DNA of 58,377 nt from an uncultured Rickettsiales bacterium (lineage in GTDB: Bacteria > Pseudomonadota > Alphaproteobacteria > Rickettsiales > SXRF01), in NCBI GenBank assembly GCA_964487265.1, contig CAZAQK010000001.1:1-58377 (forward strand), read 5' to 3'. A program made the position numbers and the translations under genes. This document shows positions 31,665 through 55,267 of this stretch, one piece after another (position 1 is the stretch's first letter; each line of letters opens with the position of its first letter). Below the pieces are notes generated by a model, which was not told where the DNA came from, did no database searches, and was given only the letters and a program-made list of their open reading frames with translations.

Positions 31665-34600
31665 TCAGGCCGCACTTGCGCGCAGTTGCAGCTTTTTGAG
31701 GCAGAAATCCACCCACTGTGCCGTGAGTTTTTCCTGCACGGAGTTCTGCCTGAGGCGGTCACTCAGGTGTGGGAAATCCACATGGTCCAGAGGCTGATCC
31801 TGATTGAAGCAGGAATAGACATAATACTCCCTGCCGGTTGCTGGATCGATATGTTTCTGCAGGCACTGCGCGCATATCTCTTTCATCATGCACTGCATCG
31901 GCGAGTTGATACTGCCAATAGCCACATGGTCTGACTTCAAATAAGGCTTAAGTACACTGTGACGAGCGGCACCCACTGCCGCCATCATGCGGTCAGAGCC
32001 GATGGCGATGATGTGGTTGATAGTGTCCAGCGGCCAGTGGCCAGTGACCAGTTTTCCACTCGCATAGGCAACCATCGCCTCGACAATATTACCCTTATAA
32101 CTCATATCCTGCGGGCGGTTTTTGGAAAGTTCGGCCTCATCGCAGCACCAGACAATAACATCCGCTGCCTGCTCGATTTCCTCGATCTTGTAGCGGTCGA
32201 TGGCCTTTTTATATCCGGCGAAATAGAGCACCTTCGAGCCTTTTGCCCTCAGTGCCTTGCCGATGGAAAAGAGCACGGCATTACCCAGCCCGCCGCCAAC
32301 CAGCATGACATGTTCATTGGCAGGAATTTCTGTGGGTGTACCCGTCGGGCCCATGAGAATGACTGGTTCTCCATTCTTCAAATGCGCGCACAGATCAGAT
32401 GAACCGCCCATTTCCAGCGCGATAACAGAAATAAGCCCTTTGTCCTTATCCACCCATGCACCCGTCATGGCCAGGCCTTCCATGGCAAGTGTAGTGGCTG
32501 ATATTTTCAGTGCATGTGCCTCAAAATTCTGCAGGCGATAGAACTGCCCGGGCTGGAATTGCTGCGCTGCAAGCGGTGCATGCATCACCACCTCGATAAT
32601 GTTCGGTGTCAGGCGATTCACCGCATGTACGGTAGCGCGTAACTGCTGATTTATTTTTGTTATAAATTCTGAACTCTGCACTCTGAACTCTGCACTCTTC
32701 CTTCTTGCAAGCGCAGCTGTCACCACCGGATAGCCCTGCTTCGCACTGCCCATGGCCTTCACCACATTACCGGCAAATGACGGATGCAGGTCACCAAAGA
32801 AGCTCACACTCCTGCCTTCTTCATCAATCGACATCAGCACATGCACGTCTTTTGGTTTCGATACGCGCTCAGGTTTTACATGGTTTCCGCTGGCATCCAC
32901 TGCCTTGAAATATTTGCCATCGAGCGCGAAGTGCTCGGGATCTTCACGTTGCAGCACTGTGTTAGGGTTCGTACCCGCTGCAATCAAAATGGTGCGGGCG
33001 GGAATGGTGATGGTATCATTCTCCGTACCCGCTTTCTTCAGTGTAATGCTGCTGGCATAGCCAGATTTATCACATCCGATCGCCTGCGGCTCGAAAAGCT
33101 CCGAGAAAAAGATCCCCTCTTCAAATGCTTTCTCTACTTCTTCATGATTCAGGCGGTAACTCGGCGCATCGATCAGCCGTTTGCGGTAAATGAGTTTTAC
33201 CCCACCCCATGCATCAAGCAAACTCCAGACATCCGGTTTTTCTTTTTTCTTTTCTTCACGAATAGCACGGCCATGCGCCAAAAATTCCTCGGCAATCAGT
33301 GTATCTTCCTCACTCCAGCTTTTACGCACCGCTGCTTCGCCGCGCTCTGCAACTAACGCTTCATAACGCGCAAGGAATTTTTCCACCTGCACAGGATAAT
33401 AGGCAAGTGATTCGGTTGCCGTATCAATGGCAGTCAAACCCCCGCCGATCACCACTACCGGCAGGCGCACCTGCAAATTGGCGATGGAATCCTTTTTCGC
33501 GGCACCGGTAAGCTGCAATGCCATCAGGAAATCTGAAGCCGTGCGCACGCCGCGAGAAAGGCCGCCGGGCATATCGATCAGTGTTGGTTTGCCTGCTCCC
33601 ATGCAGAGCGCAATGTGGTCAAAGCCCAGTGCAAAAGCATTCTCATACGTAAGCGATGAACCAAAACGCACCCCGCCGATCATCGCAAATTGCTCGCGCC
33701 GCTCAAGCAGCAGGCGGATGATCTTCAGGTAATTCTTATCCCAGCGCACCGTGATGCCATATTCGGCAACGCCACCAAAGCCCGCCAGCGTGCGCTCATC
33801 GAGTGATTCATAAATGGTGTTGATGTCTTTAATGGGTTCAAACGGCACACGCGTACCAAGTGCTGTTACGCCGGAAATATTTTCTGCCACCGGCTCGATT
33901 TTAAGCCCATCGATGCCAACCACCGTATGCCCATCATTTATCAGGTGATGTGCCAGCGTATAACCCGCAGGGCCAAGGCCTGCCACCAGCACGTTGCGGC
34001 CAGTATCTGCCTTGGGCAGCGGCCGTTCCAGATTCAGCGGATTCCAGCGTGTGAGCAGTGAATAGATTTCGAACCCATATGGCAATTTTAACACATCCTT
34101 CAACACATGCGTTTCCACCAGCGGGATATTCACCGGCTCCTGCTTCTGGTAAATGCAGGATTTCATGCAATCATTACAGATGCGATGCCCCGTGCCGGCA
34201 CACATGGGGTTATCCACCGTCACCATCGCCAGTGCACCAAGCGGCACACCTTCCGATTTCAGCATGTTCATTTCAGATATTTTTTCTTCGAGCGGGCAAC
34301 CGGCAAGCGTAATGTTGAGCGCATTTTTCTTATAAGCAGTGGCTGGAGTTTGGAGTTTAGAGTTTGGCAAAGACATCTCTTCACCAGACTCTAAACTCAA
34401 ACCACCAACCACTTTCTCCTTCATGCCTTTTGAGCAGGAATCTTTGCCCTGATTGTGGCAGAAGATGCAGTAATTCGCATGGTCGAGTGCTTGCTGTAAT
34501 GTACCAGCATCATCAGTAAGCTTAAAGCCATCGCGTGCGCGCAGATGGTGTTTGTGGGAGCGCATCACCGTCACGCCATCACGCAGTTCCGTTTCTACTG

Positions 34601-37169: not shown

Positions 37170-37995
37170 CGGCTCTTAGTCGCTCAAAGCTCGATTCATC
37201 CTCATCCGCACCCATCGGGCGGCCTGAACGTTCGGACACTTTGGTAGTTTTTAGTTCTTCGATGATTGCATCGATCGTTGCAGCACCGCTTGCAATCGGC
37301 CAGGTGATACCTCTCTCACCAAGTGAACGAAAACGCATCATCTGCCCATTGAAACTCCGACCTTCAAATTCATGATAAACCCGCGCGAAATATAGCGGCA
37401 CAATGGGGATATTTTCACGTTTGATATATTGCCAGATATCCAGCTCCGTCCAGTGCAGGAGCGGATGGATACGAAGCGACGTGCCGGGTGCAAAATCCGT
37501 TTTATACTGATCCCAGAATTCCGGTGGTTGCTCTTTCACATCCCATCCACCTTCCACGCCACGTGGCGAGAACACGCGTTCTTTCGCGCGCGTTGCTTCT
37601 TCATCACGGCGAATGCCTGCTATCACACCAGTGAACCCATGACGTTCCAATACCTGCTTCAAACCCAGCGTTTTACGGGATGCCACGCGGGCAGCATGTG
37701 GCAATGAATTATCGGTTTCTTCCAGCGGTGGGCATACGGGAGCTATTAAATTGATGTTCCACTCTTTCACATATTTATCACGGAAAGCATAGACCTCTTC
37801 CATTTCCAGTTCGGTATCGCAGTGAATAAGTGGAAACGGTACCTGCCCGAAAAATGCTTTGCGTGCTAAGTGGATCATCACGTTGGAATCTTTGCCGAAA
37901 GACCACAACATGGCGAGCTTGTCGATGGCGTTGAAAGCCTCGCGGAAGATGTAGATGGATTGTGCTTCTAATTGGTCAAGATGGTTGTGGGTCAT
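37156..37995 (-). CDS. cysD: sulfate adenylyltransferase subunit 2
   Basis: 279 aa with [21 protein letters not shown] and the PP-loop family pattern. Its ATG forms an ATGA overlap with the stop of the preceding four-helix-bundle ORF. Confidence 0.94.
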
Positions 37996-38007
37996 TGGTC
38001 ATTAGTC
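37991..38007. repeat. left arm of inverted repeat bracketing the four-helix-bundle ORF (GGTCATT heptamer units)
   Basis: GTCATTGGTCATTAGTC is complementary at 15/17 positions to 38351-38367. It contains the cysD start codon and the stop of the four-helix-bundle ORF. Confidence 0.8.
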
Positions 38008-38363
38008 TTTTGGGATTGTATAAGTTTTCCAAGCATTCTGTTGATACTTTCAATTATACTTGAAAGTTCTATATAATTATCCGTTGAAAGATATTTTCTG
38101 GATTGCGCGATAATCAGCTGCGTTTCCAATTCAGCGATTGAACCGCGTGCAATATATAAGAACTGTACAAATTCTTTTTTACTGTTTCGTGCACTGCCTT
38201 CTGCAATATTCGACGGTATAGATACCGCGCAACGCTGTATCTGCTGCGTCAGGCCGTATCGCTGATCGGCAGGAAATTTTTCAGTAGCAGTGTAAACTTT
38301 ATCCACCAGCGTCATAGACAAATTCCACACTTCCAAGTTCTTAAACCCATGACTCATGACCAT
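37992..38363 (-). CDS. four-helix-bundle protein (23S rRNA intervening-sequence protein / Avd family)
   Basis: 123 aa with family hallmarks FKNLEVWN, FPADQRYGLTQQIQRCAVSIPSNIAEGSAR and FLYIARGSIAELETQL. The real start may be Met3 at 38357. Confidence 0.85.
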   Translation of the reverse strand: MVMSHGFKNLEVWNLSMTLVDKVYTATEKFPADQRYGLTQQIQRCAVSIPSNIAEGSARNSKKEFVQFLYIARGSIAELETQLIIAQSRKYLSTDNYIELSSIIESINRMLGKLIQSQKTNDQ

Positions 38364-38367
38364 TGAC
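38351..38367. repeat. right arm of inverted repeat bracketing the four-helix-bundle ORF (CATGACN heptamer units)
   Basis: GACTCATGACCATTGAC pairs with 37991-38007. Weaker complementarity continues outward to about 37982/38376. It contains the start codons of the four-helix-bundle ORF. Confidence 0.8.
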
Positions 38368-38378
38368 GCATGACTAAA

Positions 38379-39116
38379 TTAAACGCTCCAATCCGATACC
38401 TGGTCGGACGACAGATGTATGCCACATTCAGTTTTCTTTTCATCTTCAATCCCGATCGTATGCGCCCAGCGGCCAGCACGCTCATCCTGCCCCGCCTGCA
38501 CTTTAGCCGTGCATGGCGCACAGCCGATGGAAAGATAACCTTCCTTGACCAGCGGATGTTCCGGCAGCTTGCGCTCTTTTGTTTCTTTTTTCTGGCGTTC
38601 CTTATCCCAGAAGGCAAGCGGGTTGATGCGGAAAATGCCTTTATCATCCAACTCTATCGTTTGCATTTCAGCGCGCTCAAGCGTCTGGTAACGCTTGCGG
38701 CCTGTGATGAGTGCAGTAAGTTTTAATTGCTCCACGGCACGGTTCAGAGGTTCTACCTTGCGCAACCAGCAACAGCGGTTGGGTTGAGTGCTCCAGAGTT
38801 TGCCATCCGGATCGATACGTTTTTCCATCTCTGCATCTGGTGTAAGCCAATGCACATTGGTAAGGCCAAGTTGCTTGGAAAGCGTACGCGCATACTCCAG
38901 CGTTTCGGGGAAATGCTTGTGCGTTTCAAGAAATAAAATTGGTGTTGATTTATCGACTTCGGCAACCAGCGCAAGCAGCAATGCAGCATCCGCCCCGAAG
39001 GAAGAAATAAGGCCGATCTTTCCTTTAAATTCTTCACGTATCATCACGCGCAGGAGTGCCGTGGCATCCAGCGAGCCATAGAACATCTGCAGGCGCGAAA
39101 GGGAGACATCACTCAT
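38379..39116 (-). CDS. cysH: phosphoadenosine/adenosine phosphosulfate reductase, Fe-S (APS-reductase) type
   Basis: 245 aa with the Cys pairs NRCCWLRKVEPL and SIGCAPCT plus the C-terminal KTECGIHL. Confidence 0.9.
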   Translation of the reverse strand: MSDVSLSRLQMFYGSLDATALLRVMIREEFKGKIGLISSFGADAALLLALVAEVDKSTPILFLETHKHFPETLEYARTLSKQLGLTNVHWLTPDAEMEKRIDPDGKLWSTQPNRCCWLRKVEPLNRAVEQLKLTALITGRKRYQTLERAEMQTIELDDKGIFRINPLAFWDKERQKKETKERKLPEHPLVKEGYLSIGCAPCTAKVQAGQDERAGRWAHTIGIEDEKKTECGIHLSSDQVSDWSV

Positions 39117-45847: not shown

Positions 45848-45852
45848 AAATG

Positions 45853-45921
45853 TGGTTGCTTGTTACTAGTTGTTGGTTGTTAGAAGCAATACACTAGCAA
45901 CTAACAACCAGCAACTAACAA
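45853..45921. repeat. hairpin with heptamer-periodic arms (TAGTTGT/TGGTTGT units)
   Basis: Core stem 45867-45883 / 45901-45917 gives 16 Watson-Crick pairs + 1 G-T of 17, with a 17-nt loop. It fills the fadB-like/DUF475 spacer. Confidence 0.85.
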
Positions 45922-55186: not shown

Positions 55187-55197
55187 AAGTGTGGCTC

Positions 55198-55266
55198 GGT
55201 GGCTTGGTGGCTCGGTGACTTGGTGGTTCTTACTGAGCCACCTGGTCACTCAGTCACCTAGTCACT
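55198..55266. repeat. hairpin with octamer-periodic arms (GGTGGCTY / AGTCACCT units)
   Basis: Arms 55198-55226 / 55238-55266 give 21 Watson-Crick pairs + 5 G-T of 29, with an 11-nt loop. It fills the acpP-fabF spacer. Confidence 0.85.
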
Positions 55267-55267
55267 A

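Follow-up and report, generated by a model that had tools for sequence, protein, structure and literature searches.

A four-helix-bundle gene of the rRNA intervening-sequence family within inverted heptamer arrays at the cysH-cysD junction of an uncultured alphaproteobacterial lineage

Between cysH and cysD, a 58,377-nt stretch of DNA from an uncultured Rickettsiales bacterium (contig CAZAQK010000001.1 of assembly GCA_964487265.1), which is called the window here, carries a module of about 390 nt. It consists of an open reading frame (ORF) for a four-helix-bundle (4HB) protein of the family PF05635, placed within inverted (R)GTCATG heptamer arrays. The module is probably a cassette of the intervening-sequence (IVS) type that was inserted co-directionally at the TGATG cysH-cysD junction of one uncultured alphaproteobacterial lineage. 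It would then be a member of a widespread class that also includes the ORF-bearing IVSs of 23S rRNA and the XCC0516 locus of Xanthomonas, and the modules of this class are best explained as hitchhikers in transcription units, either mobile or exchanged horizontally.

The assignment of the protein was tested with profile searches. The ORF matched PF05635 with E=1.4e-40 and 138.2 bits (cut-off 33.8), TIGR02436 with 1.2e-37 and 128.5 bits (cut-off 24) and NF008911 with 138.9 bits (cut-off 137). The nearest solved structure was XCC0516 of Xanthomonas (PDB 2GSC, E=1.4e-24), with which the window protein shares 41-43% identity. An AlphaFold model of the monomer, built on 41 homologues, had a pLDDT of 94.6 and helices at residues 9-25, 30-55, 60-86 and 92-118. 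It was superposed with template modelling (TM) scores of 0.93 on XCC0516, 0.79 on BT_0352 (2RLD) and 0.80 on Avd (4DWL), the accessory protein of diversity-generating retroelements (DGRs). A first-pass annotation of the window, made from the sequence, had placed the ORF in the 23S-IVS/Avd superfamily and had proposed the PF05635 search; both the search and the modelled fold agree with this placement. Pentamers are seen in 2GSC, 2RLD and 4DWL. The core motif of the family, R-x(3)-S-[IV]-P-S-N-[IV]-A-E-G together with E-x(2)-T-Q, is present in the window ORF. The residues S46, S49, N50, E53, G54, E76, T79 and Q80 were invariant in 41 sequences and all occur in the window ORF; I51 was invariant in the same 41 sequences and varied between I and V in a set of 8. 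Between 4HB copies that share RGTCATG arms, the proportion of nonsynonymous differences (pN) was 0.08-0.21 against a saturated synonymous proportion (pS) of 0.7-0.83, which shows strong purifying selection on the protein. Over this same synonymous-saturated distance, the RGTCATG arms were still recognisable. The PF05635-type family is very large, with at least 7989 matches. The cassette protein had no PADLOC match, so that membership in a defence system was rejected, and no Pfam domain besides the 4HB, and no transposase or recombinase domain was found in it.

The resemblance to Avd raised the question whether the ORF could be the accessory protein of a DGR, or its remnant. The fold is similar (4DWL, and the DGR ribonucleoprotein 8UB7), and weak matches to the bAvd and DivGenRetAVD models were obtained. 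However, both Avd models stayed below their cut-offs (38.1 versus 40 for PF22296, 38.9 versus 80 for NF033474), the neighbours are cysI, a sirC-like gene, cysH, cysD and cysNC, and the operon contains neither a reverse transcriptase nor a template/variable repeat pair. Since the Avd-specific profiles were below cut-off and no reverse transcriptase is nearby, we take the protein as an IVS-type 4HB protein and not as a DGR component. The Avd reading has a negligible probability and is refuted for practical purposes.

Both arms of the module read as heptamer arrays (Table 1), as the first-pass annotation had described them. The motif GTCATNNGTCAT was found solely at the two arms in the 58 kb, where 0.09 occurrences were expected. 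The inverted repeat 37991-38007 / 38351-38367 has 17 nt, of which 15 are complementary. In a repeat search it extended to 37988-38007 / 38351-38370, that is 20 nt with 85% complementarity, in line with the outward pairing that had been noted. When the region 37960-38400 was folded, the long-range stem appeared in both the minimum free energy (MFE) and the centroid structure, with z = -3.06 and none of 100 shuffled sequences folding as well. The arm-arm duplex had an energy of -27.8 kcal/mol, which was reached by 5 of 500 dinucleotide shuffles and by 6 of 2000 random genomic 41-mers. A stem no better than shuffled controls had been named as an outcome that would speak against the element; the opposite was observed. 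The 5' arm family of the window also flanks the closest homologues, at the loci L006, L166, L167 and L170.

The arms are fitted precisely to the reading frames at their ends. The cysH gene stops with TAA at 38381-38379. Both candidate starts of the 4HB ORF, at 38363 and 38357, fall inside the 5' arm, and its TGA stop at 37994-37992 overlaps the ATG of cysD at 37995-37993 as ATGA in the 3' arm, so that the codon positions given by the annotation for the two arms are correct. The start at 38357 (MSHGFKN...) is favoured by the homologues and gives 121 residues. A public record, P0001 (107 aa), gives the ORF a later start (window 38315-38363). Because the conserved residues L8, V10 and W11 lie upstream of the start annotated there, the true start should be 38357 or 38363. 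In the window cassette, no Shine-Dalgarno sequence was visible for the 4HB ORF or for cysD. The ancestral Shine-Dalgarno sequence of cysD is a GGAG in the final codons of cysH, and in the linear sequence about 390 nt now separate it from the cysD ATG downstream. CysD itself is extended at its N-terminus by two arm-encoded residues and begins with MTHN.. versus the ancestral MD... Promoter and terminator searches of the cassette gave matches at chance level, including one -35/-10-like site at 38044-38015 in the 3' end of the ORF. No Rfam family was found anywhere in the window; the flanks of the cassette are cysH and cysD and not an rRNA gene such as 23S, in whose helix 25 or 45 the IVSs lie.

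To compare the junction among relatives, CysD was scanned in species-representative genomes. This gave 80 loci of uncultured Alphaproteobacteria, many of them labelled Rickettsiales (the relatives' loci are numbered L001, L002 and so on; WIN is the window locus). In 8 relatives the site was empty. These include the two closest, L001 and L002 (CysD 94%, CysH 91-93% identical), and six other lineages. Their sequence is GTG-TGATG-GAY-CAT, where the TGA of cysH overlaps the ATG of cysD with nothing in between. The junction alignment that had been proposed thus uncovered sites lacking the roughly 390 nt in the closest relatives, and the view that cysH and cysD are normally adjacent was borne out. 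In a tree of CysD and CysH, filled sites (WIN, L006, L009) were interleaved with empty ones.

A 4HB gene was present at the same junction in L006, L009, L010, L011/L012, L015, L020, L036 and L167-L172, and in L017 a 4HB cassette lies between cysI and sirC. The arms of these cassettes differ by lineage: GTTGAGT/ACTCAAC in L015, CGTGTTT/CACGAAA in L011, TTGTAGC../..CTACAAA in L036, TGGTCTT/AAGACCA in L009 and, at the cysI-sirC site of L017, GGTCGTT/AACGA... Each cassette lineage has its own heptamer, and the 5' array was always complementary to its own 3' array. An ORF at this junction without the inverted repeat, which the annotation had thought would refute it, was not encountered, since every relative with the ORF at this place has complementary arms. 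Apart from the copies named here, the profile search yielded no 4HB gene in L001-L080, and no second one in the window. In L029 and L023, ORF-less heptamer structures occupy the cysH-cysD junction. These comparisons support the conclusion that the junction was hit repeatedly by independent cassettes. For the identity of the element and its insertion, taken together, our confidence is very high.

Further observations were made on the cys operons of the relatives. The C-terminal tail of CysH is encoded by the 5' heptamer arm in L005 (3831-3992), L011 (3540-3592) and L036 (3556-3600). In L005, GGTCATG-type repeats are kept at the junction but a different small ORF replaces the 4HB gene. The cysD-cysNC junction carries ORF-less heptamer hairpins in L009 (4838-4957), L011 (4856-4988) and L029 (4837-4932). 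Each of these shares its heptamer family with another element of the same or a sister genome, the L011 hairpin resembling the cassette arms of L036.

The same cassette was also found outside the cys operon. The closest homologue of the window 4HB protein among the matches listed was P0002 (75% identity; L166:2017-2888). Its gene follows a RidA-like gene and stands beside TrbC, VirB4/TrbE and TraX. On one side it has AGTCATG GGTCATT GGTCATG AGTCATG and on the other CTCATGA CCAATGA CTCATGA CCAATGA CC, which are the same arms as in the window. This context resembles a conjugative element and suggests a route for horizontal spread.

The generality of the architecture was assessed with 80 metagenomic loci that encode 4HB proteins of 41-61% identity, 67 of which had at least 200 nt on both sides. 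Period-7 arrays flanked the 4HB gene on both sides in 40 of the 67 (60%) versus 6 of 175 control ORFs (3.4%) from the same contigs. Period-8 arrays were found on both sides of 6% of the 4HB genes and of 0% of the controls, and the periods 6 and 9 gave essentially none. A separate inverted-repeat score was positive for 51% of the 4HB genes and 3.8% of the controls. The median energy of the arm duplex was -28 kcal/mol for cognate and -17 kcal/mol for non-cognate pairs (p=8e-11). Short gaps and co-direction with both neighbours characterised 40 of 57 cassettes, and none of 19 metagenomic 4HB loci that were scanned for rRNA context lies in rRNA. ORF-less hairpins of the matching heptamer family were observed near the 4HB cassette on many metagenomic contigs (L142, L100, L090, L089, L156).

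Cassettes of this kind were also found in named organisms from different bacterial phyla. In Nostoc edaphicum the cassette lies between nrdB and nrdA with the arms (GTAGGGA)x8 ... (TCCCTAC)x5, and in Riemerella anatipestifer the 4HB arms are AAGGTTC/GAACCTT. The XCC0516 orthologue of Xanthomonas campestris (L173:2424-2872) is located co-directionally between accB and accC. Its 5' arm is GACGGGAATCGGGAGTGGAGAATCGGGAATCGG, its 3' arm CCCATTCCCCATTCTCGACTCCCTATTCCC abuts the accC ATG, and the MFE fold closes the whole accB-accC cassette with the arm stem. We consider it very probable that the window cassette belongs to this widespread class of 4HB genes in heptamer stems. A further 4HB cassette, at L085:187-791, has TCGTCGT/ACGAATC-type arms and is enclosed by two tRNA genes of the same direction. 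With this stable-RNA precursor context it takes a middle place between the rRNA IVSs and the mRNA cases.

How such an insertion would be accommodated in an operon can be proposed from its geometry. The whole cys operon would be read as one mRNA, which fits the chance-level promoter and terminator matches. A ribosome ending at cysH, whose stop is 3 nt before the 5' arm, would melt the stem and free the starts of the 4HB ORF for re-initiation. Termination of the 4HB ORF at its UGA would then hand the ribosome to the overlapping AUG of cysD (AUGA). By this, the ancestral coupling of cysH and cysD would be rebuilt as a relay from cysH to the 4HB ORF and on to cysD, and the insertion would cost the host little. 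In untranslated RNA the arms would pair (about -28 kcal/mol, at least 20 bp) and hide both start codons, and their duplex would resemble those at which RNase III cleaves the homologous rRNA elements. This RNA mechanism, which takes up the occlusion, coupling and processing proposed in the first-pass annotation, is put forward tentatively. The same placement, with the stop at one arm and the start at the other, is found at accB/accC and in the ORF-less hairpins, an argument that the class has been selected for its fit between cistrons.

Two simpler generalisations on the arms were rejected. A period of 7 does not, as a general rule, supply every one of the three frames with stops and starts, as the densities of stops and ATGs in the arms of 48 cassettes were about those expected from base composition; it does so in the GTCATGA family, which has an ATGA in each repeat, and in TAACTGA (PMC4679880). 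The G-rich polarity of the 5' arm was dismissed as a sign of the direction of transcription because an inverted repeat has identical polarity from either strand.

Several points weigh against the explanation that we favour. No target-site duplication was identified: none was clear in WIN or L006, and in L009 a possible GATGG/ATGG duplication does not exactly regenerate the empty sequence. For the window copy, the arm duplex stands out no more than moderately, with a z of about -2.8. Cutting by RNase III and coupling would follow from analogy and geometry only, and a cut within the stem would remove the initiation region of cysD, which would be costly in an mRNA. If the sense transcript were under selection, G:U mismatches in the arms should outnumber A:C mismatches. 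Among 174 arm mismatches in 41 cassettes, 40 were of the G:U type and 38 of the A:C type, giving no sign of selection at the RNA level. Therefore the complementarity is not demonstrably kept at the RNA level and could reflect the making or repair of DNA. Finally, the identity of the 4HB proteins was close to that of CysH (73 versus 76% for WIN-L006, 69 versus 72% for WIN-L009, 76 versus 76% for L006-L009). As the two identities roughly track each other, some vertical descent is possible, and an ancient vertical presence with many precise losses may apply to the group WIN/L006/L009.

In its strict form, this alternative says that the cassette is an ancient vertical resident of the cysH-cysD junction that was precisely lost many times and is not currently mobile. 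The scaling with CysH identity, the saturated synonymous sites between copies and the GGTCATG-type remnants at the L005 junction are consistent with it. However, it needs about 6-7 independent deletions, all of which restored the identical TGATG and the ancestral MDH N-terminus, and this is not parsimonious. Moreover, in L011 and L036, which are sister lineages (CysD 93%), the arms are entirely different and the ORFs only 59% identical, and the closest homologue among the matches listed is at a different locus. We regard strict vertical residence as unlikely.

The result of the mismatch analysis bears on a second alternative, in which the arms act at the DNA level. They would be the terminal inverted repeats or hairpin ends of a mobile element that are recognised or generated by recombination or replication, and the RNA stem and the overlaps with starts and stops would be tolerated by-products. 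The missing wobble bias of the sense strand fits this view. So do the travelling of the arms with the ORF to unrelated loci, the 5' arm that is G-rich in 43 of 48 cassettes with a polarity that is the same from either strand, and the ORF-less hairpins of the same build, which resemble miniature inverted-repeat transposable elements and include a 69-nt in-frame insertion with counterparts in L014 and L038. On the other hand, neither a transposase or recombinase nor a target-site duplication was found, and no catalytic activity is known for the 4HB fold. The codon precision with which the arms lie on the stop and start codons of the neighbours at many independent sites points to selection at the level of expression as well. 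The DNA-level view may be correct, although we rather doubt it, and it is compatible with insertion of a hitchhiking cassette and does not exclude it.

In a third alternative, the module would be a regulatory insert that the host has domesticated, with the benefit of uncoupling or tuning the expression of cysH versus cysDN according to the sulfur status. Its position over the cysD start gives leverage on cysD translation, and the intact ORF and the conserved arms are retained in several lineages at the same junction. But the same module occurs in unrelated operons and contexts (accBC, nrdAB, the tRNA cluster, ridA with the type IV secretion genes, cysI-sirC), the closest relatives do without it, and nothing ties the protein family to sulfur metabolism. 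A regulatory benefit is therefore quite improbable, and we keep to the explanation as an IVS-type cassette that hitchhikes in transcription units.

The features of the window are collected in Table 1. The small ORF between cysH and cysD, the gene order and the coordinates correspond to those of the first-pass annotation. All genes of the cys region are on the minus strand and overlap their neighbours or are at most 15 nt apart, and their identities are secure.

Table 1. Coordinates of the cys-region genes, the cassette and the ORF-less hairpins in the window
Feature	Position	Strand	Remarks
cysI	41354-39621	minus	
sirC-like gene	39619-39113	minus	
cysH (PAPS/APS reductase), upstream cistron	38379-39116	minus	NF002537 1.3e-69 and PF01507
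5' arm	38346-38375	minus	AGTCATG CGTCAAT GGTCATG AGTCATG GG; starts 3 nt after cysH stop
4HB ORF (PF05635/TIGR02436, 23S-rRNA-IVS protein family)	38363-37992	minus	123 aa; 121 aa from 38357
3' arm	37987-38007	minus	GACTAAT GACCAAT GACCCAC; complementary to 5' arm
cysD (sulfate adenylyltransferase small subunit), downstream cistron	37995-37156	minus	NF003587 1.2e-102
cysNC	37169-35202	minus	
Heptamer hairpin in 1176-aa oxidoreductase ORF (35195-31665)	34338-34413	minus	36-nt arms, 81% complementary
ORF-less heptamer hairpin, fadB-like / DUF475/TerC-like spacer	45848-45921	minus	22-nt arms, 86% complementary
ORF-less octamer hairpin, acpP-fabF spacer	55187-55267	minus	26-nt arms, 73% complementary

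The window, which covers 58 kb of the genome, thus contains one cassette and three ORF-less hairpins that use other repeat units than the cassette; GGTCATG-family repeats in ORF-less form were not found within it. The hairpin of the fadB-like / DUF475/TerC-like spacer reads (TTAGTTG)n, a 10-nt loop and (CTAACAA)n. It fills the spacer: the TAG stop upstream falls within its first repeat, and 5 nt separate the end of its 3' arm from the ATG that follows. The ORF-less hairpin that L029 has between cysH and cysD is built from the same heptamer family (TAGTTGC/GCAACTA). In the acpP-fabF spacer, GGTGAC-type 8-mers pair with CCACCAAG/TCACCGAG; this hairpin occupies the whole spacer, from the acpP stop, which its 5' arm directly follows, to the fabF ATG, where its 3' arm ends. 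The two spacer hairpins share the ending ..CCACAYTT-ATG.

The third hairpin is a 23-codon (69-nt) in-frame insertion (..VVGGLSLESGEEMSLPNSKLQTPATA..) in the conserved 1176-aa oxidoreductase ORF, with a fold energy of -48.9 kcal/mol. In protein and DNA alignments the insertion was absent from L001, L002, L006, L007 and most others, and L014 and L038 have independent hairpins of other heptamers at the same codon position. This corresponds to the situation of selfish DNA in a coding gene, as in Rickettsia palindromic elements (RPEs). The idea that the loop of this hairpin keeps ancestral sequence was rejected: GGTGAAGAG resembles the ancestral ACCGGTGAG, but this is not so in L014 and L038, and the resemblance is probably due to chance. 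Two more period-7 arrays were observed in the same ORF at 32021-32056 and 32660-32708 (..KLVTGHWPLD.., ..KSAEFRVQSSEF..). A complementary partner was looked for and none was found; these arrays may be half-elements or old insertions.

A wider reading can be formulated, which we regard as speculative and rather unlikely. In it, PF05635 4HB proteins and the heptamer-repeat hairpins of different bacterial phyla would make up one two-component system. The 4HB gene, which would always be enclosed by a stem of the heptamer of its own genome, would encode the trans-acting partner (a binder, a chaperone or a mobility or maintenance factor) of the dispersed ORF-less hairpins, and the 23S IVSs, STRR, GGGAATC and insertions of the 34338-34413 type would be one element family. 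The models for such a system are RAYT for the REPs or the homologous Avd for the RNA-reverse transcriptase complex of DGRs. If it were true, its interest would be high.

What the IVS or 'S23p' proteins do, with thousands of copies, two crystal structures and no role assigned, has been unexplained for 20-35 years, and the same holds for the origin of rRNA intervening sequences and for the excess of intergenic heptamers (STRR, TAACTGA, GGGAATC). The window locus and the comparative data tie IVS proteins, rRNA IVSs and heptamer repeats together. The gene for the IVS protein is typically found in a heptamer stem, co-directional in rRNA, tRNA clusters and mRNA operons, with a codon-precise fit between stop and start in the mRNAs. 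These questions can be tested in a tractable organism, as Xanthomonas campestris has accB-XCC0516-accC and about 70 convergent GGGAATC pairs in its genome. On the practical side, the insertions shift annotated starts and the N- and C-termini of essential genes, as seen with the two additional residues of CysD and the arm-encoded CysH tail of relatives.

Other inverted-repeat elements are known from bacterial operons. The Correia/NEMIS elements of Neisseria, ERIC and REP/BIME lie within operons, and their transcripts form stem-loops; RNase III acts on Correia elements, and REPs modulate mRNA stability. The window cassette is similar in that it is an intercistronic inverted repeat, has terminal inverted repeats and shows empty sites in relatives. 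Those elements, however, have no ORF and no tandem heptamers and are defined by their sequence, whereas the 4HB cassettes conserve an architecture of period-7 arms with a varying heptamer sequence. RPEs, reportedly described by Ogata and co-workers in 2000, are said to be inserted in-frame in genes. They are sequence families of 100-150 bp. The hairpin at 34338-34413 is comparable as a palindromic in-frame insertion in a Rickettsiales-labelled lineage that is absent from close relatives, but RPEs are not heptamer arrays, and the focal cassette is intercistronic and carries a gene. In the REP-RAYT system the RAYT protein is an HUH transposase of known activity. There, too, a gene is flanked by inverted copies of a repeat that is dispersed without an ORF in the same genome, as observed for the 4HB genes with Xanthomonas GGGAATC and on metagenomic contigs. 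The 4HB protein has no recognised catalytic site, in contrast, and the ORF-less hairpins of the window use other heptamers than the cassette. The window cassette matches the Correia, REP, RPE and REP-RAYT families neither by sequence nor by enzyme. With the Avd of DGRs it shares the pentamer-type four-helix-bundle fold and the superfamily, but it lacks the reverse transcriptase and the template and variable repeats, its scores are below the cut-offs of the Avd hidden Markov models, and its genomic logic is another one.

Tandem heptamers have been described on their own. The TAACTGA repeats of Beggiatoaceae are tandem 7-mers (PMC4679880). Like the arms of the cassettes, these and the STRR repeats of cyanobacteria lie in spacers just upstream of starts or overlapping upstream stops, and heptamer repeats occur in Cyanobacteria, Bacteroidota and Proteobacteria. 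They differ in having been described as direct repeats of unknown function. Rehm et al. (2015, PMC4692102) described the GGGAATC arrays of xanthomonads as G-quadruplex formers and counted 186 arrays and 70 convergent pairs for Xcc; XCC0516 is not mentioned in that paper. The accB-4HB-accC locus inside a stem of the GGGAATC/GATTCCC type has the same architecture as cysH-4HB-cysD, with another heptamer and another host operon. The XCC0516 protein, a structural-genomics target, and the GGGAATC repeats were described separately and never connected in the literature searched. A full-text search of the openly accessible literature found no work in which PF05635 genes are associated with heptamer inverted repeats at their flanks, the Coxiella IVS excepted.

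The closest comparison is with the ORF-bearing rRNA IVSs of Coxiella burnetii and Leptospira, in which, likewise, the ends of the element pair as a long stem and the loop holds a PF05635 ORF. In the 23S IVS of Coxiella, the 5' half of the stem carries two or three GACAGAT heptamers ahead of the S23p start; their number varies among strains, and the first of them is where RNase III cuts (PMC4990558). The first-pass annotation had recognised the rRNA-IVS architecture, an ORF in the loop of a stem, and the tandem stem heptamers of Coxiella upstream of the S23p ORF add to this likeness. Stem heptamers directly upstream of the ORF start, a poor or absent Shine-Dalgarno sequence and a sporadic presence among relatives are common to both (PMC4990558). 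The differences concern location, processing and selection. The window cassette lies in a protein-coding operon, where its arms overlap the flanking stop and start codons and would rebuild the coupling. RNase III excision has been shown for the IVSs and would be a predicted step for the cassette. The Coxiella ORF is decaying, whereas the 4HB ORF of the window is strongly conserved by selection. The window element would work like an rRNA IVS but fails its defining feature, to sit in rRNA.

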